64,000 nucleotides of DNA, from positions 80,481 through 144,480 of the IMG/VR virus record IMGVR_UViG_3300046003_004989. One strand, given 5' to 3'. The notes beneath the pieces were generated by a model. That model saw only the letters and a program-made list of their open reading frames with translations, was not told the origin of the DNA and searched no databases. The position numbers were made by a program, and so were the translations under genes. The DNA comes from a virus. Positions 3,815 to 64,000 of the stretch are shown piece after piece; positions within the stretch are counted from its first letter, which is position 1; the number at the start of each line of letters is the position of its first letter.

Positions 3815-4453
3815 TTAAAGCTCAGTCTGATTGTCTGAGTCGAAGTCTGTAGGATCTTCTTCTGGCTCTTCATTACCTAATTCTGCTTGAATTTCTTTCA
3901 TTAGGTTTCTAGTTCCTCTAGCAACATTTCCGCTTTCTAGCTTCTTAGTTGGTTTTGCTTCACCTCCACCTCTTGCATCATCTGCATAGATATCGATGTC
4001 ACGTTTAAGTTTTTTCATATTCTCTTCGGATGCCATCATATGAAGTGTTTGATGTTTCATAATATCTAACATTGTCTTTTGAAGACCTGCTAGAACCTCA
4101 AACATACGAGGAGTAACTTCACCTGTATCAATGGTTCTCATTAATGTAGTGATAGCTCGCTCAGAGTATTGCATTTGTTGAATCAAATTAGATAGCGTTA
4201 GCATTTCTAATTTCGCCTTAGCTTGAATGTACTCGTTATTGTCTATCAGCTCTTGTGAAAGATAGAATTTAAGTAGTGAGTTCATCATCTTCTTAGATTT
4301 ATTCATAGAAGAAGCTTTCATCTCGTCATAGTCGATAGGCTCATTCAATTGGAATGCTGGAAGACCACCTCCACTTGTTGCAGGAACGTTATCGTCGTTC
4401 AAAAGGTCCTCGACTGATCTCCTTGCTGGATTGTCTTGTTTATCGTTTTCCAT
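3815..4453 (-). CDS. Probable terminase small subunit
   Basis: Immediately upstream of terL; helical, PRMFEVLAGL resembles the gp16 PRAYEV motif. Confidence 0.6.
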   Translation of the reverse strand: MENDKQDNPARRSVEDLLNDDNVPATSGGGLPAFQLNEPIDYDEMKASSMNKSKKMMNSLLKFYLSQELIDNNEYIQAKAKLEMLTLSNLIQQMQYSERAITTLMRTIDTGEVTPRMFEVLAGLQKTMLDIMKHQTLHMMASEENMKKLKRDIDIYADDARGGGEAKPTKKLESGNVARGTRNLMKEIQAELGNEEPEEDPTDFDSDNQTEL

Positions 4454-4489
4454 ATTATTGTATTCTTATAGTATATGTATCTCTGTACG

Positions 4490-4598
4490 TCGGAGCGGAA
4501 CCTCGACTTGACAGCCTCCTCGTGTTTTACTGTATTCCCTTTACCTGAAACCCAGTAAGGGTTATATGTTACCGAGCCGAGCTGTGTTTCAGAATCAA
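4490..4598. repeat. Copy A of GC-rich long-hairpin element (inverted copy at 63821-63925)
   Basis: 4529-4568 is the exact reverse complement of 63852-63891; flanks are also similar. Confidence 0.9.
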
Positions 4599-4599
4599 T

Positions 4600-4635
4600 A
4601 AAAAAATGCGATAAACCTTTCGAGATTCATCGCAT
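4600..4635 (-). terminator. Rho-independent terminator
   Basis: Minus strand ATGCGATGAATC-TCGAAA-GGTTTATCGCAT followed by a T-run, downstream of 4655-4996. Confidence 0.8.
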
Positions 4636-5011: not shown

Positions 5012-6868
5012 TTATCTTACGTATTCTTTTACCATTCTCAAAGGTGGAATAGCATTATCGATCATTAAAGCTTGATCTTGATCTCTTACTACAAATTGAT
5101 TAAGAGTTATAGGTTGAACCTCTTCTTCCATTGATTCTTTCCATATTCTAATATTAGTTAGAAGTGTAGTTCCAGCTCTTAACATGAAAGATGTATCGGT
5201 TGGAGTTATCGCTTCAGGAGTCATATTAGAATTTTGAGTAAACAGAAGTCTAAGATTAGTAGTTTTAATTTGTCCATTTGGTGGTAAAGATGAATCGTAT
5301 CTCATACCCCAAATATGAACTGATGTTTGAGAGAATTCATTCATATGATTAACTACAATTCCATACCAATCATTAGGATTCAATTCAGGGAAATTCTGAT
5401 CAAAAACCATTGTTTGAGTGTTTCTAACAACAGTTATCGATTTTGTTTTTCCTGTGATAGGATCGTAATCTAAAGTGATTCCAATACCTTTATTTTCTGA
5501 TGGATTGTAACCATCAATTAGAATATCTGATCCATTTCCAGTAGGCTTAAACCAAGCAGAAAATGCAGTATTCACTTTGTCATCTCGATTTACCGCTAAT
5601 TTATACTTAACCGCAATATCATTTTTAGTCATACCTACAGGTAAGTTGTAGAAGTACTTACCAACTACCGTAAAGTAATTTGTTAGATCTTTTGTTTCGA
5701 TAACTAGCTTATCGTGAATATGACTTCTTACGTGATCGAATCCACCGATAGAAATTGTACGATACTGTAAGGGTTTCGTAATCTCTTCATATTCTCTTTG
5801 GATTTCTCCACCAAGAACTTCGTCTAATGAAACATGAAGATCGTTAACGTACTGATCGATTTCAGGGATGTTACGCATAACATTTAGTTTATCTTGCCAT
5901 TTGAATAGATTGACTCTGTAATAAGCTTCAGTAGCCATAAAATCACGTCTCAAATATGCCGAGTTAACTTCATATATACGATCAATTAGAGGGAAATACA
6001 AATAATCTCTTTGTTCAGGAAGATCGTCTTGTCCGAATGCTCTTTCGAAATGTTCTTTGACGATATGCACTTCTAGACCATCACCAAAATCCATATCATA
6101 AGGTAAGAATGCGATAGCATTGTCTGGGAATTGATTGTCAGGAATCATAATCTTGATATCCTTCACTTCCGTTACCTCATATAGTGAAAACTCTTTTAGA
6201 ACTGGATCAGCAGATTCAGCTTTAACTTGAGTTTTGAAATATCGAACACAATGACCAAACATTTCCGAAACTGCACATGACATTTCGTGATAGATCTTAA
6301 TAGCTGGACTCATTACATCATAAGGACGGAATAGAGCACCATCACAATTAATTGTAATTCCAGAAGAGAAATTTGTAGTAGGACAAGCATTAGCTTTACA
6401 GCCGTCTTGCGTGATTATTTTCGGAGCAACTCCTGTAGGTGTAACACCTTCTTCGAAATTGATAACAATTCTTTCAATCATTCTTGCTCCAGTTTCTGGA
6501 CCTTTTCTGACTAATCTAAATTGTAAGTCAAATGAATCAGAAATTTTATGCGGATTAGGATCAGTTGGACGAATAATGCCATTCAATGTAGATCGTAAAC
6601 TTTCTAATTGCTGACCATTCTCTGCAATTTTAACCCAAGCTGACCAAATAACATGAGGCTTTCCGGTAGCTCTATCTATTGTTGCAATATCATAACTCCA
6701 TCTAATGTAAATGTCATGATAATTCTCCGCAGTCTCTAAAGGAGAGAAGTCAAATTCAATATTTTGTATTGATTTGATATAATAGAAAGCATTCGAAAAG
6801 TCCACAAGCAGGGTATCACCTGCATTGTAAGTTATGTTATTATTGGTTATTTGATAATCGAAACGCAT
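5012..6868 (-). CDS. Neck/head-completion protein with gp14-like central domain
   Basis: DPVLKEF...DGLEVHIVKEHFERAFG..P.QRDYLYFPLIDRIYEV resembles gp14; extra N- and C-terminal beta domains. Confidence 0.6.
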   Translation of the reverse strand: MRFDYQITNNNITYNAGDTLLVDFSNAFYYIKSIQNIEFDFSPLETAENYHDIYIRWSYDIATIDRATGKPHVIWSAWVKIAENGQQLESLRSTLNGIIRPTDPNPHKISDSFDLQFRLVRKGPETGARMIERIVINFEEGVTPTGVAPKIITQDGCKANACPTTNFSSGITINCDGALFRPYDVMSPAIKIYHEMSCAVSEMFGHCVRYFKTQVKAESADPVLKEFSLYEVTEVKDIKIMIPDNQFPDNAIAFLPYDMDFGDGLEVHIVKEHFERAFGQDDLPEQRDYLYFPLIDRIYEVNSAYLRRDFMATEAYYRVNLFKWQDKLNVMRNIPEIDQYVNDLHVSLDEVLGGEIQREYEEITKPLQYRTISIGGFDHVRSHIHDKLVIETKDLTNYFTVVGKYFYNLPVGMTKNDIAVKYKLAVNRDDKVNTAFSAWFKPTGNGSDILIDGYNPSENKGIGITLDYDPITGKTKSITVVRNTQTMVFDQNFPELNPNDWYGIVVNHMNEFSQTSVHIWGMRYDSSLPPNGQIKTTNLRLLFTQNSNMTPEAITPTDTSFMLRAGTTLLTNIRIWKESMEEEVQPITLNQFVVRDQDQALMIDNAIPPLRMVKEYVR

Positions 6869-6886
6869 TAAGCATTATTCGTATTT

Positions 6887-7270
6887 TTAGTGCTTTGTCA
6901 TCATTTGGAAGATTAGTGCAATAGTTAAACCTGCAACTGTAGTGAAAATAAACCAAAGAGCTTTATTAACACCTTCTTGCCATTTTTCCAAATTATCTAA
7001 ACGATTTCTTAGATCCGGAATTTCTTCTATTTGATCTTCAAATCTTAGGATAGAATCCGTATTCTTGTTTATTCTAACAATAACACCATCATCTGGATTG
7101 AAGAGTCTTTTTTTGAAGTATTCCAAATCCTCTTTAATAGATTTTTGGTCTTGACTAAGAGACTCAATCGAGCGTTTTATACTCTCAAGTTCTCCGTTTG
7201 GAAGTTTGGTCTTGATGATATCAAGGGCTTTAAGAATATCTTCTATTCTTGGATCTGAGGTAGTAGCCAT
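6887..7270 (-). CDS. Coiled-coil protein with C-terminal transmembrane helix (possible holin/lysis-related)
   Basis: ALWFIFTTVAGLTIALIF hydrophobic tail; late-type promoter motif at 7291-7298. Confidence 0.5.
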   Translation of the reverse strand: MATTSDPRIEDILKALDIIKTKLPNGELESIKRSIESLSQDQKSIKEDLEYFKKRLFNPDDGVIVRINKNTDSILRFEDQIEEIPDLRNRLDNLEKWQEGVNKALWFIFTTVAGLTIALIFQMMTKH

Positions 7271-7313
7271 CTATAATTCTCTTGTTTTTATATTTATCCG
7301 TGAACCAAGAGAA

Positions 7314-7967
7314 TCATTTCTTCATGATTACAAGTGCAGTAGAATTATCTCGTTCCAATTTATGACCAAAAGCAGCCATTATATTTACAACATTAAGATA
7401 TTCGTCGTCTTCTTTTTCGAATTGATAAGAATAATTTTGAAGACGTACGAAAAGGTCACGGACAGCAACCTCAAAATAAGGTTTGGGATTGTATATTGTA
7501 GGTTGATAGACTCCAATATGTTTGAAGATTCTCTCACAATCTACTAAAAATTCAGGAAGAACTTTATTAGCGAGATCTATCCTAGAATGCATAATTTTAT
7601 ACTCAAATTTTTTGTTCTCGGATGATTCTGTAGTTTCGGATACATGAACTCTAAAGTATTTGAGTTTTTTAAATTCTCTCATAGCCGCCTCTAAATAATA
7701 AATAGAGTTAGCATTAGCTTGGAAATTTGAAGGTGAAACCGAATCAAAATTTGTGATATCTTTACGATATTTCTCCCAAAGGATCTCTTCTACCTCATGC
7801 ACTTTCACGAAGAAAGAAGAACTATCATAGTCAGGGACTGTAACAATCTGTGCTTTCTTTTTGAAGTCATTTATCAATAAACGGTCTTTGTAATTGTTCT
7901 TATTGAGATAGATCTCTAGAATTAGAGGTTCAATCATAAAATTAGTATCTTCAAAGTTATCGATCAT
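7314..7967 (-). CDS. Hypothetical protein
   Basis: 217-aa ORF in operon. Confidence 0.7.
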   Translation of the reverse strand: MIDNFEDTNFMIEPLILEIYLNKNNYKDRLLINDFKKKAQIVTVPDYDSSSFFVKVHEVEEILWEKYRKDITNFDSVSPSNFQANANSIYYLEAAMREFKKLKYFRVHVSETTESSENKKFEYKIMHSRIDLANKVLPEFLVDCERIFKHIGVYQPTIYNPKPYFEVAVRDLFVRLQNYSYQFEKEDDEYLNVVNIMAAFGHKLERDNSTALVIMKK

Positions 7968-8373
7968 ACATTTCGATTTGTTTTTCTAATGCAGAAAAAC
8001 TCTTCTTCATACCTTCTGGATTGTATTTGATAGCTTCATGTAATTCTCTTTCGCCTATCTGATTTCTTTCCATCCAAAGTTTTGCAACTTCTGGATTAGG
8101 TTTCCAGACTTTTTCGGTTGAAGATGTAGTCCTCTTAGTCTTTGTATATATCCAACCAGGGACTCTTTGGAACCTTGATGCTACGATTTGCCATAAGTCG
8201 ACGACCGCTGATCCATTGATTCCATTTCGATTTAATTGTTGTGCAGTTGCAGGATGTTTAATCGACATGAATCGATTGACCATAAAGAAGTGTTTACCTT
8301 TCTCTGCACTTTTTTGTTCTGCGTATTGTTTTGGGTTCGTGAACATTACACGAACGAAGTCAAATAGTTCCAT
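7957..8373 (-). CDS. Probable clamp loader small subunit (gp62-like)
   Basis: FFMVNRFMS motif like gp62 (FMINR.LS), size about 140 aa; likely start MELFDF at 8373. Confidence 0.55.
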   Translation of the reverse strand: MELFDFVRVMFTNPKQYAEQKSAEKGKHFFMVNRFMSIKHPATAQQLNRNGINGSAVVDLWQIVASRFQRVPGWIYTKTKRTTSSTEKVWKPNPEVAKLWMERNQIGERELHEAIKYNPEGMKKSFSALEKQIEMYDR

Positions 8374-8388
8374 GTTAGTTATATGCAA

Positions 8389-8700
8389 TTAAAGTTTATC
8401 GTAATCAGTCAAATCTATTTCTGTTCCGTCCCAACTTTTAGCACTGACCATATTTCCTATGCCAGTTAAAGTGAAACATATCGTAGTTCCACCTCCAATA
8501 GCACCTAAATACTTCTTTGGTTTAGATCTTTCCCATGCACGTAATTTTCTGATTTGTACTTCATCTAATTCGAATTGCCAAGACTCAGAAGTATACACTC
8601 CTTCAGGAACGACATTCCATTCTTTTGGTAAACATTTCTCCGTACACCTTCCATTTTTCTTGATGCATTTTTTGCAAAGGATTTCTTTACTCATTTTCAA
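8389..8700 (-). CDS. Hypothetical protein
   Basis: GAIGGG.T..FT.TGIG...EIDLTDYD, a common small phage protein pattern. Confidence 0.65.
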   Translation of the reverse strand: MKMSKEILCKKCIKKNGRCTEKCLPKEWNVVPEGVYTSESWQFELDEVQIRKLRAWERSKPKKYLGAIGGGTTICFTLTGIGNMVSAKSWDGTEIDLTDYDKL

Positions 8701-9001
8701 ATTCTTTTTTAAGACGTAGATAGCTTTCTCGTCTACGATTCTTCATTTCAATTTCGCTTCGTTTATTCCTTTCAATTCGTTTTTCAAATTCTTCATCAGA
8801 CTCTTCAACCATCCGAGTAATTTGATTATGCCAATATCCATGATAGTCGAAGTTATCATCATCAACCCAACCAGAATGAATGATGTCATCGTCTTCTAAT
8901 TGTAAATTTTTGATATGAGACCATTTCATTGGGCCGTTATTATATCCATGGAATATTTGTTTTTCCTTTAAGATTTTCTTTGGTGATTTTGTATCTTCCA
9001 T
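8687..9001 (-). CDS. Hypothetical protein
   Basis: ORF; likely start MEDTKS at 9001. Confidence 0.6.
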   Translation of the reverse strand: MEDTKSPKKILKEKQIFHGYNNGPMKWSHIKNLQLEDDDIIHSGWVDDDNFDYHGYWHNQITRMVEESDEEFEKRIERNKRSEIEMKNRRRESYLRLKKEFENE

Positions 9002-9819
9002 TATTTTTGTATTTGTGGTACCCAATGTGTCATTCTGCCTTCTCTCGTTACTTCTTTAACGACTGGATATCCTTGTTCGCAAATGTTTCTTCCGTAAACT
9101 TTAAATGAGAAAACGAAATCTCCATCTTCTCCGTCCATACCTTTATATGTGCTAATACTTGCTCCTCGATTAGCAAAAGAAGATTTGATTACTTCTTCAG
9201 TTGCTTTATTCAGTTTAGAGAATTCGGAATCTGTGATAGATTTTACTACTCTATGTGGTGAAACTCCAGCTCTATAGAGAACTTCTGCTTTGATGTAATT
9301 TCCGATTCCACCGATCAGTGATTGATTCATTAAAACTTCTGGCATCGTAGCTTCAGGGAATTTCATTAGCCTTTCTTTGAATAGCTCATCAGATATGATA
9401 TCTGCTAGATGATTAGGTCCGATAGACTTTATTTTCTTTTTAGTCTGTTCGATATCATCTATGAATTTCATAGTTCCAAAGTTTCTAGCATCAGTAAAAA
9501 AGACCGAATTATCTTCAGTCTTAAATTCTATATGGCCATGTTTTGTATGATCGGCTCTCCAACCGCCAGACATTCCGAGAGTATTCCAAGCCCACCATTT
9601 TTTTCCGCTTTTCCCTGTGAACTGAAATAAAATCAGCTTTCCACAGAAAGTTACTTCATCTACTTTTGCAGGCAATTCTTCTCTAAATGCAGATAGACCG
9701 ACTGGATCTCCATGTCTGACATATCTACCAGAGTGAATGATAACTTCGGTTAGTAATTTACCGTTGATTCTTTGATTAATCGACAGTGCTGTCCTCGCTA
9801 CTTCTGGTAATTCTGGCAT
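9001..9819 (-). CDS. mutM: Formamidopyrimidine-DNA glycosylase (Fpg/Nei family)
   Basis: MPELPEV N-terminus, GK, LGMSG, D.RNFG, and H2TH motif LMNQ..IGGIGNYIKAEVLY. Confidence 0.93.
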   Translation of the reverse strand: MPELPEVARTALSINQRINGKLLTEVIIHSGRYVRHGDPVGLSAFREELPAKVDEVTFCGKLILFQFTGKSGKKWWAWNTLGMSGGWRADHTKHGHIEFKTEDNSVFFTDARNFGTMKFIDDIEQTKKKIKSIGPNHLADIISDELFKERLMKFPEATMPEVLMNQSLIGGIGNYIKAEVLYRAGVSPHRVVKSITDSEFSKLNKATEEVIKSSFANRGASISTYKGMDGEDGDFVFSFKVYGRNICEQGYPVVKEVTREGRMTHWVPQIQK

Positions 9820-9988
9820 TTTCGTTTTTTTCGTTAATGAATCTTTTTTGTTCTATTAGCAATTTTTTCCCTTCGATTTTATTTGATTCGTTTAGGGCTT
9901 CGGTTAGCTTTCCTAGAACGTCTACTAATTTAGGTAGATCGTGTTCTAAGAATTTTTTACCTACTCTTGATGATGCAAAGTCTTCCAT
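9776..9988 (-). CDS. Hypothetical protein
   Basis: GKKFLEHDLPKL small phage protein. Confidence 0.6.
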   Translation of the reverse strand: MEDFASSRVGKKFLEHDLPKLVDVLGKLTEALNESNKIEGKKLLIEQKRFINEKNENARITRSSEDSTVD

Positions 9989-9992
9989 TTGT

Positions 9993-10409
9993 TTAATTTA
10001 TTTGTTCACGATTCCAAGTGTATTCTTTCACTTCACCGTTAATGTATTCTTTCCAAGTCTTCTTCCAAGGACCTGCTATTAATAATGTGACACAACCTCT
10101 AGGGGATTCACCTATGCAATGATAGGAATCTCGAGGAAAGTATCGTATAAATTGTGTTCTTTCTATTGTTGTAATTTCTCCAGTGGATTCATCATCCAAT
10201 ACATATTCTCTGTATCTCCCAAAAAGTTTGAAACTTAAAGCATTAAATGCATGAGTATGAAACCTATCTTGAAAATTATCACTTTTAACGAAATGAAAGA
10301 TGACTATACTAAAGAGCCACTTACATTCGAAAATAACATATTGGTGAATCTTCCGATTACCGAAGTTAAATGTGTTCTTATGTAAAAAACTTATTGCGTT
10401 ACTCTTCAT
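9993..10409 (-). CDS. Cupin-fold protein
   Basis: FHTHAF...GRYRE...YHCI...TLLIAGP cupin-like His motifs. Confidence 0.6.
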   Translation of the reverse strand: MKSNAISFLHKNTFNFGNRKIHQYVIFECKWLFSIVIFHFVKSDNFQDRFHTHAFNALSFKLFGRYREYVLDDESTGEITTIERTQFIRYFPRDSYHCIGESPRGCVTLLIAGPWKKTWKEYINGEVKEYTWNREQIN

Positions 10410-13290: not shown

Positions 13291-13303
13291 AATTGAATTG
13301 TTT

Positions 13304-13383
13304 TAATTTGATATACAAATATAATACAAAAACTCGACATTAAAAAATGCCGAGTCAATTATTTTCAAAAAGTTATTAACAAT
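13304..13383 (-). promoter_or_regulatory. Early (host-RNAP) promoter, copy 1
   Basis: ATTGTTAATAACTTTT ... TTATATTTGTATATCAAATTA; contains the Bacteroidota -7 element TAnnTTTG; repeated three times in window. Confidence 0.75.
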
Positions 13384-13611
13384 TTAAGCCCAAAAGTTAT
13401 CATATCCGTTTTGATATGATTCCTGAAGCTGAGGTGTAATTGTTATGTGAGTGTATGCTTTTGGTACATTTAGATGCTCACAAGCTCTATCGATTGCTCC
13501 TTCATAATAGGCACAATCTAATAAGAAGTGAGAATCTCTAAACCAATTAGCTACTCCGTTTTTGTAGACTTCAATTACTCTGTCTAGTCTTTCTTGTGTG
13601 ATGTTTTCCAT
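13384..13611 (-). CDS. Hypothetical protein
   Basis: 75-aa ORF. Confidence 0.55.
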   Translation of the reverse strand: MENITQERLDRVIEVYKNGVANWFRDSHFLLDCAYYEGAIDRACEHLNVPKAYTHITITPQLQESYQNGYDNFWA

Positions 13612-13616
13612 ATTCT

Positions 13617-14138
13617 TTATATGATGATTATAACTCTTATTCTTTGACCTATAATAGCTCCACCGTACTTATAATCAATTTCAATATCTCCATTTGAAAC
13701 ATTTACTCTTGTATTATTTGATGGTACTCCAGTTGAAACTATAGAACCTTCAGTCATAATATGATTCCATTGTGTAGCACCGGCAATAAATGACCACATT
13801 GATATACTCATATCAGGAAACTGTGGAATATCATTACCTGCTAATCCACCTGCTGGAGGAGTTAGTATAATTCCAGGATTCAAACCATCAGGAGAAACAG
13901 CAGCTAATAATTCAGATCGAGTAATTGTCAAAGTTGTAGGTCCTAAAGGGAAAAACTCTTTTACGAATTTAATTGGAGAAGAAGTTGAACCTGCAGATCC
14001 AGCAGATCCAGCTGGTCCGGTTGGACCGATAGAACCTGTAGGACCGACTAGACCTAGGGTTGATATGTCTATCGGATTTCCGAAATAATCTACGAATCTA
14101 CCGTTTTCGATAAAAACTGCGTTGGAACTTGATGGCAT
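13617..14138 (-). CDS. Protein with short collagen-like G-x-y run (possible structural/fibre accessory)
   Basis: GLVGPTGSIGPTGPAGSAGSAGST. Confidence 0.55.
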   Translation of the reverse strand: MPSSSNAVFIENGRFVDYFGNPIDISTLGLVGPTGSIGPTGPAGSAGSAGSTSSPIKFVKEFFPLGPTTLTITRSELLAAVSPDGLNPGIILTPPAGGLAGNDIPQFPDMSISMWSFIAGATQWNHIMTEGSIVSTGVPSNNTRVNVSNGDIEIDYKYGGAIIGQRIRVIIII

Positions 14139-15782: not shown

Positions 15783-15798
15783 AGTTTTACCTTTTGAT

Positions 15799-15867
15799 TA
15801 ATTTGATATACAAATATAATACATTTTTTTGAAATAAAAAAATTTTTACAAAAAAGTTATTAACAAT
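15799..15867 (-). promoter_or_regulatory. Early (host-RNAP) promoter, copy 2
   Basis: Same two boxes as 13304-13383. Confidence 0.75.
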
Positions 15868-15928
15868 TTTTCAACACTGCCAAAAATGCGAAGAATCCAA
15901 ATAAATAAACAAAAAACTTAACACAGAC

Positions 15929-31161: not shown

Positions 31162-31518
31162 TTATATTGAATAGATTCCTTCGGAATCTGATGAACCTTT
31201 TCCACTTAGTGAAATGGTTCCTTTGTATTTTCCTGGATGTATTTTATTCCAACCTTTAGCATAACCATTTTTTGCGATCTGTGTAAAATATGAGAAAGCA
31301 TTAGTGGTTTTTTCTGGTTTGAAAGATCTCCAGTATTTAAACAAATCCAAAAGAGCAAAAGATATGCAATCTTCTCGATCCATCGGATTCTCATACGACA
31401 ATCTCGTATTAGCTCGATAGGCAATTAGGATTAGCATTTCCTCTGCTCTTTTAGTCAGTTTATCTTGTTTCTGTGAGAGACAAATCTCTTCATAGAATTC
31501 TTTTGGTTTTACGTACAT
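31162..31518 (-). CDS. gp55: Late transcription sigma factor (gp55-like)
   Basis: YV..KEF, REDCIS.A...KYW.SF.PEK..NAFSYFTQIA.N. Confidence 0.85.
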   Translation of the reverse strand: MYVKPKEFYEEICLSQKQDKLTKRAEEMLILIAYRANTRLSYENPMDREDCISFALLDLFKYWRSFKPEKTTNAFSYFTQIAKNGYAKGWNKIHPGKYKGTISLSGKGSSDSEGIYSI

Positions 31519-31774: not shown

Positions 31775-33439
31775 TTATTGTGTGATTTCACCTGCAGAGA
31801 TCAATTCTTCGACCTCGCTTTCTTTTATATGAATAGGTTGTGCAGAAGTTTCAAGATCTTTCTGATTAAACATATAAGAACCATCAGCTTCACCTTGGAA
31901 TACATAACCAGTTGTTCCTTTTACAGTGTACTCTTGACCAGCAACTAGATCTTTACAAGATGTAAGTTTTGTATCACCTGAAGTAGGTAATTCAGCAGTT
32001 GCAGGATCGAATGTATCAGCTGCTGCTTCAACAATTTCACCTTTTAATTTAGAAAGTGCATCATTTTGTTCTTTCAATTGAGACTCAAGAAGAGATTTAG
32101 CTTGATCGATAAATTCTGATTTACCTAAAGTCTTTTCAGCAGCTTCAATATCAGCAAGTTTCTCGATAATGAATTTAACTCTACTTTCTACTTTATTTAA
32201 TTCAGCAGTTTTTCTTTCAACTTCAGCTTTTTCATTTTCTAATAAATGATTAAGTGATTCTGAAATATCATAGTTCATGAAAGTTTTAACGATATCAACA
32301 GCTTCAGTTGCATTAGCAGCTTCAACGATTGAATTTTCTTGCATACCCTTGTTTACTTTTTGAATGAAAATACGATCATTAGTATTGAAAATTGTAGCAG
32401 AAAGACCTTCAAAAATAGAAGATGTTACTTTATAACCGAAGTCAATTTCTTTAATTTTAGATCCTTCATTGATAGCTCTTCCGATCATAGCAAGTTTTTC
32501 TTGTTCATTCATACGAACGATACCAGAAGCCATTAATTGAGATGTAATATTAGAAGATTCTACTAATTTACCATTCAATGATACTTTAGTTTCTTCACCG
32601 AAAGCGATATCTAAAACTGAATTAGGGTTTGGATAAACTCTCATTGTATTATTTGCAAATTTAGCAGATTCAGCTAAACGAACTAATGAAGTAAAGTCAT
32701 CAGATGCAGGATTCGTAGATTCAGTGATAGCTCCACCTTCGGAAACTACTAAGAATTTACCGCTTGATGCGAAAGCGAAAGTGTTTTCGTCGATAGCTTC
32801 AACTGGAGAATAAATTTTAGAAACTTTAAAGTTAGGATTCTGTCCGTTAATTGCACCTTTTTGAGTATTGCAATATTCGTATAATCTCTTAACTAAAGGA
32901 ATCCAAACTTCAGATTCCATAGTATCAACTACTGCAAATACTGGATTTTCTGAGTTAGATGCTTCACGTAAAGCAGTAATAGCTTTAGTGTAGTATGATT
33001 TGTTACGATCAACTTCTAAGTCACGAATTACAGATTCAATAAGAATGTAAGTTTGGTTAGATTTGATAAAGTCTTCACCTTCTGTGATGAAAGTTTTAAC
33101 TTGTGGCATCCAAGAATAAGCTTTAAGTTCTTTAATAGCTGATTCAAGAATAGCAACTCTACCTAAAAGGTATGAGTCAGCAATAGTTGTTTTTGCTTCA
33201 GAAAGTGTAGAAGCTGTTGCAAGGTGACGAGCTTGATTTTGCTCAACGCCTTTACCAAGCAATTCTGTATAAGCATCTTTTGCTGTGATAGTTCCTTCAG
33301 CAATTTCCAATGAAGCTAGTTTACCGTAGTATCTTTCAACAATCATTTTAGATGTATTGTTTCTGTCGATACTTTCAAGTAATTCTGAAAACTTCACTTT
33401 AAGTGACGCTGAATCAAATTTTGATTTTAGTTGTGACAT
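31775..33439 (-). CDS. Hypothetical virion/prohead protein
   Basis: 554 aa; many hxES/EA sites; codon usage like structural genes. Confidence 0.65.
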   Translation of the reverse strand: MSQLKSKFDSASLKVKFSELLESIDRNNTSKMIVERYYGKLASLEIAEGTITAKDAYTELLGKGVEQNQARHLATASTLSEAKTTIADSYLLGRVAILESAIKELKAYSWMPQVKTFITEGEDFIKSNQTYILIESVIRDLEVDRNKSYYTKAITALREASNSENPVFAVVDTMESEVWIPLVKRLYEYCNTQKGAINGQNPNFKVSKIYSPVEAIDENTFAFASSGKFLVVSEGGAITESTNPASDDFTSLVRLAESAKFANNTMRVYPNPNSVLDIAFGEETKVSLNGKLVESSNITSQLMASGIVRMNEQEKLAMIGRAINEGSKIKEIDFGYKVTSSIFEGLSATIFNTNDRIFIQKVNKGMQENSIVEAANATEAVDIVKTFMNYDISESLNHLLENEKAEVERKTAELNKVESRVKFIIEKLADIEAAEKTLGKSEFIDQAKSLLESQLKEQNDALSKLKGEIVEAAADTFDPATAELPTSGDTKLTSCKDLVAGQEYTVKGTTGYVFQGEADGSYMFNQKDLETSAQPIHIKESEVEELISAGEITQ

Positions 33440-45880: not shown

Positions 45881-45896
45881 ATTGTTTTAATTTGAT

Positions 45897-45986
45897 TAAT
45901 TTGATATACAAATATAAAACAATAAGTTGATAAAAAAAAATTTCTATCAACTTATTTTCAAAAAAGTTTCAAAAGTTATTAACAAT
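45897..45986 (-). promoter_or_regulatory. Early (host-RNAP) promoter, copy 3
   Basis: Same two boxes; 12-bp inverted repeat AATAAGTTGATA/TATCAACTTATT in spacer. Confidence 0.75.
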
Positions 45987-58165: not shown

Positions 58166-58615
58166 TTAAAGGTTACGTCTATCGTTCATCTCTTCGATAG
58201 AAATTTTATTTTTGATTGAGAATCCCATTCGGTCAAGTGTTTCAATACATTGAGAATAGAAGTTTATTTGGTTTTCTAAAAGATCCGATTGTCGAATTCT
58301 TAGAGCCATGTCAGATGCTATAAAGTCATTGATTTCTCGATAATCAAGACGAACATCATGTTGTGTTTTGTAATACTCATATCGAAGCTTTTTGAAGTTC
58401 TGATCGTTTGCTTTCTTTTTGAAATTAGCAGCTCGATATCTAACAAGCTTATCAACCATCATATGTCGATATGAAAGCATAAGAACTTGTGCTTCTGATA
58501 TTTTATCTATCCGATTCAACATTGGGATCAGATCATTCATCTTAGATGTGAATTCTACTCTTTCCGTATCTAATGCTGCTTCGAGTTCTGATACTTTTTG
58601 TTCTTCTGCTGTCAT
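58166..58615 (-). CDS. uvsY: Recombination mediator UvsY-like
   Basis: Adjacent to uvsW; YEYY...FIASD...L..MGFSIKN.I. Confidence 0.75.
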   Translation of the reverse strand: MTAEEQKVSELEAALDTERVEFTSKMNDLIPMLNRIDKISEAQVLMLSYRHMMVDKLVRYRAANFKKKANDQNFKKLRYEYYKTQHDVRLDYREINDFIASDMALRIRQSDLLENQINFYSQCIETLDRMGFSIKNKISIEEMNDRRNL

Positions 58616-58822: not shown

Positions 58823-59878
58823 TTAGACAGATCTGATATCCAGTGGGTTGTTTGTGAAGTATTTATCGTAGTTTTTAATTGCATCGCTTTTTCTGTTCCA
58901 ACAGTATTTAAGTAAGTCATTAAAGTCTTTAACCTTTTCTTGAACCTTATAGTCTCGGACTATTTTATTCCACATAAAGACGGATTTTCTTTTCTTTAGT
59001 AAGTATTCCATTTTCTTTCTACCTGCAACATCATTATCAAACAGATATCTTACTGTCGGTATTTCGTCGAACATATCTACAGGTTTATCTACTCCAGAAA
59101 TTGCAATTGAATTTTTGCAAAGTAGAGAATCGATAGGTCCTTCAAATACGGTAACAGATTGCATGAAGTCGACAGATGCTATATTGAAATATATGCTTAA
59201 AGTATTCATTCGAATTATTTCATCTTCAGAAGCTTCAATTTTTCTTTCTGAAACGAGGTAGTTAATTTTCTCGATATTATAGCTGACATATTTAGTTCTT
59301 CCTGGTTTGAAATTACGTATTTGCCAACCGAAAGTACTTTGCTTATCTGGTGATAGATTGAAAATATAAAGCTGTTCTTCTTTAGGGTCGAACATGAAAT
59401 ATTCGAGATTATGATGCATAAAGCGACCTTTCAAATACCTTTCAATTCTCATATTCTCTTTTGCCGTTACGAGGTTAAATTTTTTCTTAACTACGTCTAG
59501 AGGAATTGAGTATTCTTTTAGATTTTCAAATACGGTCAATTGCATATAGTCTTTGGATGCAACTACTACTTGATTTTGACGGATATAATCTAGATAGTAG
59601 ATTAGATCATCAGTATTAGAAATTGATTGATTGTGGTCTTTAAAGAATTCAACTAGGTTTGAATGCTTTGAACAATTATAGCAATGAAATGTGAGAGATT
59701 TGAGATAGATATTTCCACGCTTTTTATGAGGATCGTTAGAGTCACCACAATAAGGACATGCAAAATTCAACCTATCTCGATGAGGCTTCATTGCAGTCTT
59801 AGGTCCTGTAAATGTATCGTATAAAACTCTTTGTACTTTTTGAGTGATTTCTCCTATTTTCTGTTGTGTTAATTCCAT
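58823..59878 (-). CDS. gp61: DNA primase
   Basis: NFACPYCGDS..KKRG..FHCYNC zinc finger, FEGPIDS, FDND, KDFND TOPRIM. Confidence 0.93.
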   Translation of the reverse strand: MELTQQKIGEITQKVQRVLYDTFTGPKTAMKPHRDRLNFACPYCGDSNDPHKKRGNIYLKSLTFHCYNCSKHSNLVEFFKDHNQSISNTDDLIYYLDYIRQNQVVVASKDYMQLTVFENLKEYSIPLDVVKKKFNLVTAKENMRIERYLKGRFMHHNLEYFMFDPKEEQLYIFNLSPDKQSTFGWQIRNFKPGRTKYVSYNIEKINYLVSERKIEASEDEIIRMNTLSIYFNIASVDFMQSVTVFEGPIDSLLCKNSIAISGVDKPVDMFDEIPTVRYLFDNDVAGRKKMEYLLKKRKSVFMWNKIVRDYKVQEKVKDFNDLLKYCWNRKSDAIKNYDKYFTNNPLDIRSV

Positions 59879-59942: not shown

Positions 59943-60893
59943 TTACTTGATATCGAATTCTTTCAACCAGTCTTCAATTTCAGCATCTGATCCATTAGCA
60001 GCATCTGTGCTAGCAGTATCAATATTTGCCGATGGAGCAGGTTGAGAAGCTGTTTCGGTAGGAGTATAAGTTTGAGCTGGAGTAGCTGGTTTGCTTGGTG
60101 CAGTTACAGCATTATAAGCTGATCCTGGATTTCCAGTCAATTCAGATAAGAATTTGTGAACTCTGTCTCTTTGTTCATCAGACCAAGGTTTGAAGTCAAA
60201 TGTTTCCAATTCAGTAAGACCTTCATTGTAAAGGCTTAAGATTAAGTTACGAGATTCAGCGTTGTTATCCATTTTAACTCCTTTAACAGAGATTGGAGAA
60301 TTTGCTGGAGCGAATTTACATTCGTCATAATTCCAGTAACCACCTTTAAGTGTTACTTTAATTGAGAAGTCTTTACCATTGAAGAAGTCAAAGATATTTG
60401 TAGGTTCAGCACCCATTTCGATTTCTTCTGCAGATGGTTGGATTTGTGCATCGATTAATTTCTTAACCGCTTTAGGGAAACGTAGAATTTGAATTGTTCC
60501 TTCCATTTCTGGACGTTGTGGGTCTTTCACGATTTCAACATATGAGTAGTAGTACTCTTTACGTTTAATGTGTTCAGCTTGTTTCTTATCGAATGCAGAT
60601 TCAGATTTGAAAAGCTTCCAGAATGTGTCTTGAATTACGGATTTTTCATTGATTGATGAGGGACAATCAACATAGAAACCTTCACCTTCGTTTAATTCTA
60701 ACCAATATGAGAATTTCTTAACGATAGATTTTTTAGGATTCTTGATGTTCGGTACGAAACGAACGATTGCTCTGTAGACAGAGTCTTTAGAAAGCTTCGG
60801 GTCAGTTTTATATTCTGAACTTTTTGCTACTTGTTTTTCTTCTGGTTTGAAGTCGTCTAATGACGTGTTGAAGATGTCGAAATTGTTTTCCAT
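59943..60893 (-). CDS. gp32: Single-stranded DNA-binding protein
   Basis: AIVRFVP, DCPSSI, IKRK..YYS...VKDP.RPE.EG.I, FD...GKDF..K, NYD..KF; acidic tail. Confidence 0.92.
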   Translation of the reverse strand: MENNFDIFNTSLDDFKPEEKQVAKSSEYKTDPKLSKDSVYRAIVRFVPNIKNPKKSIVKKFSYWLELNEGEGFYVDCPSSINEKSVIQDTFWKLFKSESAFDKKQAEHIKRKEYYYSYVEIVKDPQRPEMEGTIQILRFPKAVKKLIDAQIQPSAEEIEMGAEPTNIFDFFNGKDFSIKVTLKGGYWNYDECKFAPANSPISVKGVKMDNNAESRNLILSLYNEGLTELETFDFKPWSDEQRDRVHKFLSELTGNPGSAYNAVTAPSKPATPAQTYTPTETASQPAPSANIDTASTDAANGSDAEIEDWLKEFDIK

Positions 60894-61058: not shown

Positions 61059-62126
61059 TTACATATTTTTGAGTAAATAGTCATAAAAGTGTTGAACCCC
61101 GGCTTCTAGAAAAGGTTCACAGAAGCCGGTTTGGTTCTCACCACTCATATGAAGAGATGCACGTCCTCGTTCGAGCAATCGACAAGCTTCTTCGTCTTCT
61201 TTGGCAGTTTCGACGTAGACTTCTTCAATCGCTTCATAAAATTCAGGATGCTTTTCATAGAGTTCTTTTTTGTAGTAGTACTCGACATGATTCACACATT
61301 TATTTGGGGATATAGGATATATCGTACTAATCGCCATCGTATGTGGGTACCACTCAATCATTATGTTTGGGTAAAGGTAGATCCATATTGCGCCATATCG
61401 TGGTAACTCATCTCCAAAGACAGATTTAATCTGTTCCTGCCATTCTTTGTAAATTTCCGAACCGTATATGTCAAGGTTCGAGCCTATTCCAACTTTTTGA
61501 ACTGAATAATCATCACCAAAATGCCACTCCAGATCGGTAGGCGTAACAAAGTTTCGCAAACCTGGATGCATTGAGAATACGTGGTAATTTTCTAGATATA
61601 TTTCTGAAAAGGTTTTCCAATTGTAATTGTATTCTGTAGTTTCTACTTTATGAAATTTGTACTCGTCAAAATTGATATATTGATCGATATCACATGATTT
61701 CAAATCCAATGAAGGAGTTTTACCTTCAAAGAGTAGACCGTTCCAATTTGTTAATTTTCTAGTCTCTAATTTAGAGTCTGGTTTTTCTTTAAAATGAGGA
61801 GCAGTTTTAATATTACCGTCTAATTGATAAGTCCAGCAATGAACTCTACACGATATCAATTTTTTCTTACCACTTCCCTCTGCTAATAAAGATTGTCTAT
61901 GAAGACAAACATTTGAAAGGAGTTTATGTTCGCCACCGTCATTAACTAGCAACCATCGATCGTTAGTATGTGGTAGTGAGATATATTTGTTAGGTTCATC
62001 AGCCATGAGTTGATGTCCTCTATATTTCAAATCAAATCGGAAAATCGTATCTAGCTCAGCTTGTTGTATTTCTGAATCGATATAATTTTTAATAGGCAAA
62101 ACATTCATATACTTAAACTTCACCAA
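61059..62126 (-). CDS. Rieske non-heme iron oxygenase alpha subunit (putrescine-hydroxylase-like)
   Basis: C-x-H...C-x-x-H Rieske ligands (CLHR...CRVH.WTY), NWK...YLENYHV..MHP mononuclear Fe site, AKED. Confidence 0.9.
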   Translation of the reverse strand: MVKFKYMNVLPIKNYIDSEIQQAELDTIFRFDLKYRGHQLMADEPNKYISLPHTNDRWLLVNDGGEHKLLSNVCLHRQSLLAEGSGKKKLISCRVHCWTYQLDGNIKTAPHFKEKPDSKLETRKLTNWNGLLFEGKTPSLDLKSCDIDQYINFDEYKFHKVETTEYNYNWKTFSEIYLENYHVFSMHPGLRNFVTPTDLEWHFGDDYSVQKVGIGSNLDIYGSEIYKEWQEQIKSVFGDELPRYGAIWIYLYPNIMIEWYPHTMAISTIYPISPNKCVNHVEYYYKKELYEKHPEFYEAIEEVYVETAKEDEEACRLLERGRASLHMSGENQTGFCEPFLEAGVQHFYDYLLKNM

Positions 62127-62463
62127 AGGAATCTATCTTAGAATATAACTCTTCGATAGTATGTCCACATTTGGCATTTTTCTTTTTATTTTCTCTAGCT
62201 TTTAACATCTGTAGATTACAAGGATGTGCTATAAAAAATGGATTTATTTTATCTTTATATGCTTGAGATATCGAATAAATATGATCGAGATGATTAGCTT
62301 TCCAACTTCTCTTCAGACCTTTTGGATTTATTTGCTTCTTAAAAAGATCATAGTTCTTTTCAGTCAAAGCTCTAACAAATATAAAATAATCTTCTTTAGT
62401 CTCAAATAACCATTCCCAATCATTTCGATAATTTTCAAATACAATTAAATTCGGATTCAACAT
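62113..62463 (-). CDS. Stand-alone HNH-like nuclease domain
   Basis: HLDHIYSI...IAHPCNLQML..REN..K. Confidence 0.65.
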   Translation of the reverse strand: MLNPNLIVFENYRNDWEWLFETKEDYFIFVRALTEKNYDLFKKQINPKGLKRSWKANHLDHIYSISQAYKDKINPFFIAHPCNLQMLKARENKKKNAKCGHTIEELYSKIDSFGEV

Positions 62464-62786: not shown

Positions 62787-63436
62787 TAGGTTTTTCTATT
62801 ATCTTCTATCCACTTTTTGAAAACAGGAATAGCGGCTTTCATTCCATCAGTTTGATTCGCTGAATGTTCTGCTCGATTCATCATAGTTGTAGCAATTGCC
62901 ATAGCATGTTTATGATCAGTTTTCTTCAATTTATTCATAATCGTTACAGTCTTTTCTGCTTTCTCTTTTGAACCATAACCAGTACCTTTAACTGCATCTT
63001 TAGTTCCTGGGTTAAAGAGACCATCACCTTCATCTATCAAATCTTCAGAAATAATCAAATCTAAGTCAAAACCTTCAATTTCTTCGGATTCTGATTTCTT
63101 ATTTTTATCAATCCACTCTCTGAAAATTTTCTGAGCTTCTCTCATTTCAGGTGTTTGATGTTTATGTATTTTAGCTCGTGTTTCCATCGTTGTAGCAATA
63201 GACATTGCCCATACATTTTCACCTTTACTCATCAACCAATCGAGTTTCTTTACTGTAAATTCGGCCTTTTCTTTATTAGCGTATCCAGTTCCTTTGATTG
63301 CTGACTTACCTCCTTTTGAATAAAGTCCTTCTTCAGGTGGATCGTCTTTATACTCTCTTCTTTTAACAGTATGACCAACTCTAGGTTTTTTCTCTTCTTC
63401 GTTTAAGAAGTCTTCGTAAGATATTAAATTTCTCAT
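62786..63436 (-). CDS. Protein with CTS-like leader and two tandem ~70-aa domains
   Basis: Likely start MRNLISYEDFLNEE (ATGA overlap); repeat (S/D)A(I/V)KGTGY..KEKAE.TV...AM.IATTM..RA..H..QT..M..A...F..WI. Confidence 0.75.
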   Translation of the reverse strand: MRNLISYEDFLNEEEKKPRVGHTVKRREYKDDPPEEGLYSKGGKSAIKGTGYANKEKAEFTVKKLDWLMSKGENVWAMSIATTMETRAKIHKHQTPEMREAQKIFREWIDKNKKSESEEIEGFDLDLIISEDLIDEGDGLFNPGTKDAVKGTGYGSKEKAEKTVTIMNKLKKTDHKHAMAIATTMMNRAEHSANQTDGMKAAIPVFKKWIEDNRKT

Positions 63437-63798
63437 TTTGGATCTGGTTTTTCGCCTTTTCCTTCTAACCAATCTGCTACATCTTTATCGGATGTGGAAT
63501 AAGCTTTTTGTTTGTTTATAAATGCGTTCATTCTAGCATAACCCCAAGCATTGTATGCTGCTGGTCTTCCTAGAGCTTTTATTTGAGGTCTTAAAGCACC
63601 CCAATTAGTTTGTGCAGCTCCATATCCTCGTTTAAAGAGAACCATTAGAGCATGTTTGAGTTTTCCTTCGTCAGAGATGCCAAGTTTCTTTTGGGTCTCA
63701 GGATCTTTAGAAAGATCTTCAACTCTAGTTTCAGGTCCACTCTCTTCATTGATGACAGATTCATCAAGAAATTCTGTATAAGATAAGAATGTTTTCAT
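63433..63798 (-). CDS. CTS-like leader plus DUF5824-like domain
   Basis: MKTFLSYTEFLDES; L...FKRG.GA...AWGYARMNAF...SDKD. Confidence 0.65.
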   Translation of the reverse strand: MKTFLSYTEFLDESVINEESGPETRVEDLSKDPETQKKLGISDEGKLKHALMVLFKRGYGAAQTNWGALRPQIKALGRPAAYNAWGYARMNAFINKQKAYSTSDKDVADWLEGKGEKPDPK

Positions 63799-63820
63799 AA
63801 AATATGTATCTAAAATAAAT

Positions 63821-63925
63821 TTGATTTTTGAAACACGGCTGGGCTCGAAGTCATATAACCCTTACTGGGTTTCAGGTAAAGGGAATACAGTTACTCAAGA
63901 TGAGCCAGTCGAGGACGTTCCGCCG
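63821..63925. repeat. Copy B of GC-rich long-hairpin element
   Basis: Inverted copy of 4490-4598. Confidence 0.9.
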
Positions 63926-64000
63926 AGGAGCACTTCTGCCAGAGCAATAGAATCAACAAGATCATCAACAGGCTTTGGTATAACGAATTCTCCTTCTACA
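63895..64000 (-). CDS. 3' end of a gene entering from beyond the window, possibly RuvC-like resolvase
   Basis: Manual translation ...VIPKPVDDLVDSIALAEVLLGGTSSTGSS*; DD..DS..LA resembles the last RuvC motif. Confidence 0.4.
   Translation of the reverse strand, partial: VEGEFVIPKPVDDLVDSIALAEVLLGGTSSTGSS

Follow-up and report, generated by a model that had tools for sequence, protein, structure and literature searches.

The window analysed here, 64,000 nucleotides in all, comprises bases 80481-144480, the final 64 kb, of a 144,480-bp IMG/VR contig with a completeness estimate of 53%. Judged by its genes, the contig is that of an uncultured T4-like phage with a large terminase of T4 type, the closest relatives of which (30-43% identity) belong to uncultured huge phages, Sphingomonas phage PAU, and Tenacibaculum and Flavobacterium phages; blastn against cultured phages gave no match. 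Shine-Dalgarno sequences, as read from the sequence, are absent before the start codons, which is consistent with a Bacteroidota-type host. Long open reading frames occupy a single strand in every 5-kb bin of the 144-kb contig, as they do in almost every 5-kb bin of a 246-kb relative with terminal repeats, and the genome is of a strictly unidirectional jumbo type. A scan for tRNA and tmRNA genes found none.

The element under study is a non-coding cassette present twice in the window, in inverted orientation and about 59 kb apart. A first-pass annotation had described an inverted repeat with a perfect core, and this was confirmed: positions 4529-4568 are the exact reverse complement of 63852-63891, a core of 40 nt. 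The similarity it had reported in the flanks extends, in a repeat search of the 64-kb window, to arms of 88 nt (4507-4594 and 63826-63913) that are 83% complementary, and this is the longest inverted pair of the window, about twice the length of the next. The 144-kb contig holds these two copies and none further, and an exact 25-mer of the core has no match in IMG/VR beyond the source contig. Both copies are indeed GC-rich islands, with a local GC content of 0.41-0.60 vs about 0.28 in the flanks. Their settings are also as first described, with copy A lying between an intrinsic terminator and a 212-aa gene that precedes the large terminase gene, and copy B opposing the local genes, its tail overlapping the last codons of a gene that crosses the window end. 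The end of the contig is about 90 nt from copy B. The features are listed below in window coordinates.

3815-4453, minus strand: 212-aa gene
4474-4482, minus strand: AGATACATA motif, adjoining the start of the 212-aa gene
4490-4528, minus strand: copy A, GC-rich tail; CGAGG repeats at intervals of 16-19 nt; similar to copy B apart from indels
4529-4556, minus strand: copy A, conserved C-poor, G-cluster-rich block, predicted to be transcribed first, within the 40-nt exact core
4549-4563, minus strand: copy A, 5-bp palindrome AACCC/GGGTT with loop TTACT; predicted start at the A at 4556
4562-4568, minus strand: copy A, -10 element CATATAA, 17 nt past the -35
4586-4591, minus strand: copy A, -35 element TGAAAC of the bipartite pattern
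4606-4635, minus strand: intrinsic terminator of the upstream 113-aa gene, a 13-pair stem and then a T-run that adjoins the cassette
31825-31853, minus strand: for comparison, an ordinary promoter of this class, having the usual 16-nt spacer and no cassette behind it
58166-58615, 58823-59878, 59943-60893 and 62113-62463, minus strand: putative T4-style replication/recombination module, downstream of copy B
63433-63798, minus strand: 121-aa gene
63803-63811, minus strand: AGATACATA motif, directly before the 121-aa gene and back-to-back with copy B
63829-63834, plus strand: copy B, -35 element TGAAAC, opposing the local genes
63852-63858, plus strand: copy B, -10 element CATATAA, 17 nt past the -35
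63857-63871, plus strand: copy B, palindrome; predicted start at the A at 63864
63864-63891, plus strand: copy B, conserved C-poor block, predicted to be transcribed first
63892-63935, plus strand: copy B, GC-rich tail with CGAGG repeats, overlapping the end of the opposite-strand gene
63895-64000, minus strand: C-terminus of a RuvC-like resolvase-family gene (phrog_159, E 3.8e-15) that continues past the window end

The C-terminus of the RuvC-like protein is 71% identical to the end of a 199-aa protein of a relative, and it carries 9 terminal residues more than that homologue, coded by the tail of copy B (63895-63921, minus strand). The module downstream of copy B is recognised through family matches of window ORFs to a gp32-like SSB and an endonuclease-VII-like protein, the latter weak (E 6e-4), along with primase and UvsY-like calls made by position and ORF length, matched to the annotated genes of a relative.

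The promoter and the anatomy of the cassette

The CATATAA motif with which the core begins, pointed out in the first-pass annotation, is a genuine recurrent element. It is biased towards the coding strand, with 42 copies vs 11 on the other strand in this genome and 73 vs 43 in the 246-kb relative. Here 26 copies lie 5-31 nt before the ATG of an ORF of at least 50 aa, and in the relative 31 copies lie at most 40 nt before an ORF-opening ATG. The distance from motif to ATG peaks at 5-6 nt (6 of the 26 here and 12 of the 31 in the relative, where none is shorter than 5), which suggests a transcription start some 6-7 nt past CATATAA and many leaderless messages; it is solely from this peak that we infer the predicted start sites used below. 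Leaderless mRNAs, predicted for instance at the CATATAA copies at 8379-8385 and 13617-13623 (minus strand), would be unusual for phages of Bacteroidota-type hosts.

Upstream of the ordinary promoters, both here and in the relative, the conserved columns read xAAAC and end 16 nt before CATATAA. The combination TGAAAC-N16/17-CATATAA is found three times in the window vs 0.00 expected, and allowing a spacer of 14-21 nt gives six pairs of TGAAAC and CATATAA in the contig. The cassette promoter has the full consensus TGAAAC-N17-CATATAA; the ordinary promoters of the same class have N16. Searches of four phage genomes returned Sigma70_r2 matches above cut-off in all of them (open frames of 203-241 aa), the proteins being ECF-like sigma factors, and the same phages also encode a small sigma-like protein with region 2 only. 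By these motifs and matches, the cassette promoter is one of the phage's own sigma-factor class, putatively of ECF type. In the window itself a 146-aa open frame (about 31264-31404, minus strand) matches Sigma70_r2 weakly, short of the cut-off (E 6e-5), and sits just downstream of an ordinary TGAAAC-N16-CATATAA promoter; it could be a gp55-like late sigma factor.

Two other promoter-like elements were seen. The AGATACATA motif has three exact copies in the 144 kb, each just before a start codon, and is conserved in relatives; two of these lie beside the two cassettes, the third lying at contig positions 51660-51668, and the motif possibly represents a second (late?) promoter class. An AT-rich intergenic repeat of 92 nt, present three times (13293-13384, 15788-15879 and 45886-45977), holds a Bacteroidota-type TAnnTTTG -7 box on the minus strand, and these repeats are probably host-type early promoter cassettes.

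Related cassettes were collected with a degenerate promoter-anchored pattern and then with nhmmer, for a total of 41 distinct versions, and they define a self-contained unit of about 100-125 bp. Each opens with a -35 element, TGAAAC or TGAATC, followed after a spacer of exactly 17 nt (41 of 41 versions) by CATATAAC. The left arm of a small palindrome overlaps the end of the -10 element, and its loop contains an invariant TTA of which the A is the predicted start. A per-sequence stem search finds a perfect stem of at least 5 bp in 29 of the 41 versions vs 6% of shuffles, and at least five arm pairs occur, among them AACCC/GGGTT, AACCA/TGGTT, ACCTT/AAGGT and ACTA/TAGT; column-wise pair counting was dropped because loop lengths of 3-8 nt shift the right arm between columns. 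An invariant loop with covarying arms argues for a stem-loop rather than an operator for a dimeric protein. The left arm lies upstream of the inferred start and so would be outside the predicted RNA.

Beyond this palindrome, the structural part of the earlier description did not hold. The long self-folding hairpin it had proposed is no more stable than shuffled sequence, minimum free energy folds of either strand of either copy giving z-scores of -0.2 to -1.0. The outer stem that it had drawn in both copies amounts to the promoter spacer paired with the tail; for the window copies 15-18% of shuffled spacers do as well, and over 40 variants the mean z is -0.49, a weak trend. Conservation of structure beyond sequence was likewise not supported, RNAalifold finding no consensus pair among 16 relatives, and solely the 5-bp inner palindrome covaries.

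The predicted first 25-40 transcribed nt form a nearly C-free block rich in G clusters, with almost no C in columns 16-21 and 26-37 and with two or three GG or GGG clusters. The G-C skew over the first 40 or so transcribed nt is +0.34 to +0.42 in both orientation classes, and GC content downstream is 0.36-0.41 vs 0.29 upstream and 0.34 genome-wide. A word ATAYAGT, resembling a -10 element, stands at a fixed 31-32 nt after the CATATAA motif. Behind the block, in this lineage and some others, comes a GC-rich tail in which CGAGG-type direct repeats recur every 12-19 nt. In one relative (L007, positions 2880-2960) a 19-nt unit of the tail is tandemly duplicated, and repeats of 12-15 nt occur in other relatives; such tails resemble iterons and appear to be evolving by slippage. 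No ORF lies behind the cassette, and about 35 of the 41 versions have no intrinsic terminator within 300 nt downstream; a terminator of the canonical kind used by the phage stands just upstream of copy A. A small conserved ORF within the cassette was considered and discarded by eye, the reverse-strand peptide reflecting only the fixed -35 and its 17-nt spacing.

Placement in related phages

Genomes of relatives carry 2-4 copies; three near-complete ones have 3, 3 and 3-5 (two extra copies being weak), tens of kb apart. The distance between the terminase site (site A) and the site after the RuvC-like 199-aa gene (site B) is conserved at 54-59 kb. At site B the cassette is antisense in 19 of 19 versions. 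Of the site A versions, 10 are sense and 5 antisense, and many relatives lack the cassette there, the empty site carrying a plain CATATAA promoter only. At the other sites, before a gene for an M15 peptidase (lysis-type) or 4-5 kb beyond the terminase, the cassette is always sense (7 of 7), and at least one contig combines an empty site A with a copy 4-5 kb beyond the terminase. Late-type operons (terminase/sheath, M15 peptidase, collagen-like fibre) follow the sense copies, which in relatives, too, are themselves preceded by terminators; the antisense copies have no terminator partner. Downstream of site B lie small genes and those for the gp32-like SSB, the primase and the UvsY-like protein, and the gene content beside the site differs between relatives.

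Within one genome the copies are nearly identical in the -35, the -10 and 40-85 bases downstream, and their 17-nt spacers have diverged; between genomes the downstream block differs. This pattern of identity suggests that the block is under selection or is kept uniform by local gene conversion and, taken with the distribution of the copies, that the cassette works independently of its neighbours. The initial view of an orientation-independent, non-coding cis element built on the CATATAA motif stands, the element being kept in relatives and tolerated either way round.

Candidate functions

One plausible explanation is that the cassette starts a non-coding transcript which, acting in cis, would be a replication primer in the style of T4 oriF and oriG. 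The promoter/R-loop origin was among several functions named in the first-pass annotation and survives as the best single guess, tentative and carrying less than even weight, while its pac-site, inversion-site and structured-RNA options are not supported. The phage sigma factor would fire the cassette promoter and produce the non-coding transcript, with timing set by the sigma factor; the G-rich RNA would stay hybridised to its template and prime leading-strand synthesis. Orientation relative to the neighbouring genes would be irrelevant on such a model, and several dispersed copies would be expected. Minimal origins of T4 are about 100 bp long and consist of a phage-specific promoter and a downstream element, with at least five per genome, and at oriF and oriG the promoter gives rise to an R-loop that primes leading-strand synthesis (PMC3016281).

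A joint explanation is called for by a consensus promoter conserved even without a gene behind it, the lack of a 3' end signal, the conserved C-poor, G-clustered leader, the few dispersed copies with their shifting exact site, the flips in orientation at one site and the 17-nt spacer; the origin is ranked first. What counts in its favour is the autonomy of the promoter (no ORF or terminator behind it, and a site A that may be sense, antisense or empty), the 2-4 dispersed copies with their conserved A-B spacing, and the retention of the -35, -10 and downstream block, read as selection, while the spacer diverges. The R-loop-friendly skew, the scarcity of C, the iteron-like direct repeats of some lineages, and the position of copy B at the head of the gp32/primase/UvsY-like module are counted on the same side. 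Against it, an A+T-rich unwinding element is absent downstream, the cassette DNA being GC-richer than its surroundings, and the strongly conserved specific sequence has no counterpart in T4, where R-loop formation at the origins requires no specific sequence (PMC3016281). The start-site palindrome is left unexplained by an origin, and the 19 of 19 antisense copies at site B could mean a gene-specific antisense role. Cumulative GC skew tracks the single coding strand and gives no origin signal. A search with the gp59 N-domain model found no match in the phages, and the same model matched no control genome either.

More guardedly still, it is possible that the cassette is the sequence-defined, multi-copy, sigma-programmed origin of this phage group, its C-free, G-clustered nascent RNA serving as primer, and that the same primer-template junction also works as a clamp-loading site turning on the late genes nearby. 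The clamp-loading idea arises from the fact that both window copies adjoin the rare, promoter-like AGATACATA.

A doubtful but substantial competitor is a gene for a non-coding or antisense RNA whose function would reside in its 5' part, which is conserved, unstructured and G/A/U-rich. The RNA made at site B would meet the sense transcript over the 3' end of the RuvC-like gene, by pairing or by collision, and the RNAs of sense copies could pair with that transcript in trans. The first transcribed bases are conserved, and the copies within a genome have them in identical form; site B is invariably antisense (19 of 19), and duplex energies in two genomes single out one outstanding partner, the sense mRNA across the antisense copy (z -12 to -13); the best other targets reach z -4 to -4.8 among some 6,000-10,000 windows, which speaks against action elsewhere. 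Given what is established about rut sites, a transcript so poor in C would evade Rho for its first few dozen bases. Yet no terminator marks a 3' end, conserved RNA structure is absent, and a site A that is sense, antisense or vacant provides no fixed cis target. The AGG/GGA repeats might have made the RNA a CsrA-type sponge, a candidate that was rejected when no CsrA was found in the four phage genomes, although the Bacteroides control was also without a match.

It is unlikely that the cassette is instead a specially regulated promoter or insulator, with the palindrome and block binding a regulator or pausing the polymerase. The regulator would be a repressor, or a factor loading onto paused polymerase as in the lambdoid Q and N systems; sense copies would switch on late operons, and antisense copies would block read-through. 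The 17-nt spacer of all 41 versions, set against 16 nt in ordinary promoters, fits such special control, as do a palindrome centred on the predicted start, the -10-like ATAYAGT at its fixed 31-32 nt downstream and the position of sense copies at the head of late-type operons. Lambdoid nut sites and operators are alike within a genome and divergent between genomes, and the cassettes show the same pattern. Set against this, two thirds of the site A and site B versions face away from any gene, no candidate regulator was identified, arms that covary around an unchanging loop mark a stem-loop and not a dimer operator, and a left arm predicted to lie outside the transcript makes a boxB-like RNA hairpin improbable.

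A recombination cassette of the PeSL kind, a stretch of homology for the swapping, insertion and loss of modules, is improbable. In T4-like phages, PeSLs are described as combined terminator/promoter motifs through which shuffling takes place (PMC2839356, PMC4122927). The terminators ahead of the sense copies, the varied genes next to site B, and a terminase site that is filled, inverted or empty by lineage all recall them. The cassettes are nonetheless present in 2-4 copies at conserved core-gene junctions rather than in dozens in hyperplastic regions, their promoter is of the phage sigma class and not of the early host class, and the antisense copies lack a terminator partner. Strong purifying selection on the 40-85 nt past the promoter would also be needless for a patch of homology.

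The remaining options of a structured RNA, an inversion site, a pac site or an assembly artefact are together very improbable: a long hairpin can be drawn for the window copies, yet they have no significant fold, no consensus structure, a left arm predicted to be untranscribed and only chance matches in Rfam (the best being mir-221, E 1.1, and sR4, E 6.8, in scans of the whole window at gathering thresholds and of both copies at permissive ones), the first-pass annotation having likewise matched them to no RNA family; inversion of the 59-kb segment is at odds with genes that are one-stranded here and in the 246-kb relative, and with copies that are direct repeats in other relatives; copy A adjoins the terminase genes as a pac site might, yet other copies follow the RuvC-like gene, precede the peptidase gene or lie 4-5 kb past the terminase, and the terminase site is often empty; and, for all that copy B is close to the contig end, both copies occur in syntenic contexts across many independent assemblies.

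Relation to described phage elements

Promoter-based origins and repeated promoter cassettes are kinds of element that are already known. We know of no prior description, in the papers searched or otherwise, of an element that joins a phage-sigma promoter of distinctive spacing to a palindrome at the start site and a leader free of C, occurs in 2-4 copies and is always antisense at one junction, and a literature search on the motif returned nothing relevant. To our knowledge, origins are unmapped in almost all T4-like phages besides T4 itself, and those of T4 share no recognisable motif. A recurring, recognisable cassette would offer a handle on where replication starts in a large group of uncultured phages, and it bears on the timing of replication by sigma factors and on backward-facing promoters in one-stranded genomes. 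Even if its role is regulatory, orphan promoters whose antisense placement at one junction persists through about 50% protein divergence make a clear target for transcript mapping.

The cassette has parallels with T4 oriF (at uvsY) and oriG (at gene 34). Both systems are units of about 100 bp with a phage-programmed, non-early promoter and a downstream element, in dispersed copies, and the cassette has T4-like replication and recombination genes nearby (gp32, primase, UvsY-like). The T4 origins, in contrast, lack a common motif and have an A+T-rich unwinding element, whereas the cassettes have in common a conserved block, GC-richer and poor in C, and a palindrome at the predicted start site. 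Their promoter is putatively recognised by an ECF-like sigma factor; that of T4 depends on MotA with sigma-70.

The PeSLs resemble the cassette as repeated promoter units of T4-like genomes with terminator-coupled sense copies and variable neighbours. They differ in being of early host type, numerous, co-oriented with genes and located in hyperplastic regions, while the cassette has 2-4 copies, a phage-sigma promoter, a long conserved block and one site that is always antisense.

The consensus of Bacillus subtilis SigW, an ECF factor of group 4, is TGAAAC-N16-CGTA. Promoters of this type and those of the phage have in common the -35 word, a fixed spacer of 16-17 nt and, on the phage side, an encoded ECF-like sigma factor. 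The phage -10 is CATATAA rather than CGTA, with 17 nt in the cassettes and 16 nt in the roughly 26-31 mRNA promoters.

The nutL and nutR sites of lambda and the putL and putR sites of HK022 are similar in occurring as two or more near-identical copies in opposite orientations just past promoters, with identity within a phage, divergence between phages and a small covarying hairpin. They are RNA elements that precede operons, unlike the cassette, in which the hairpin straddles the inferred start, half of it thus predicted to be untranscribed, and many copies, including the antisense ones, face no operon.
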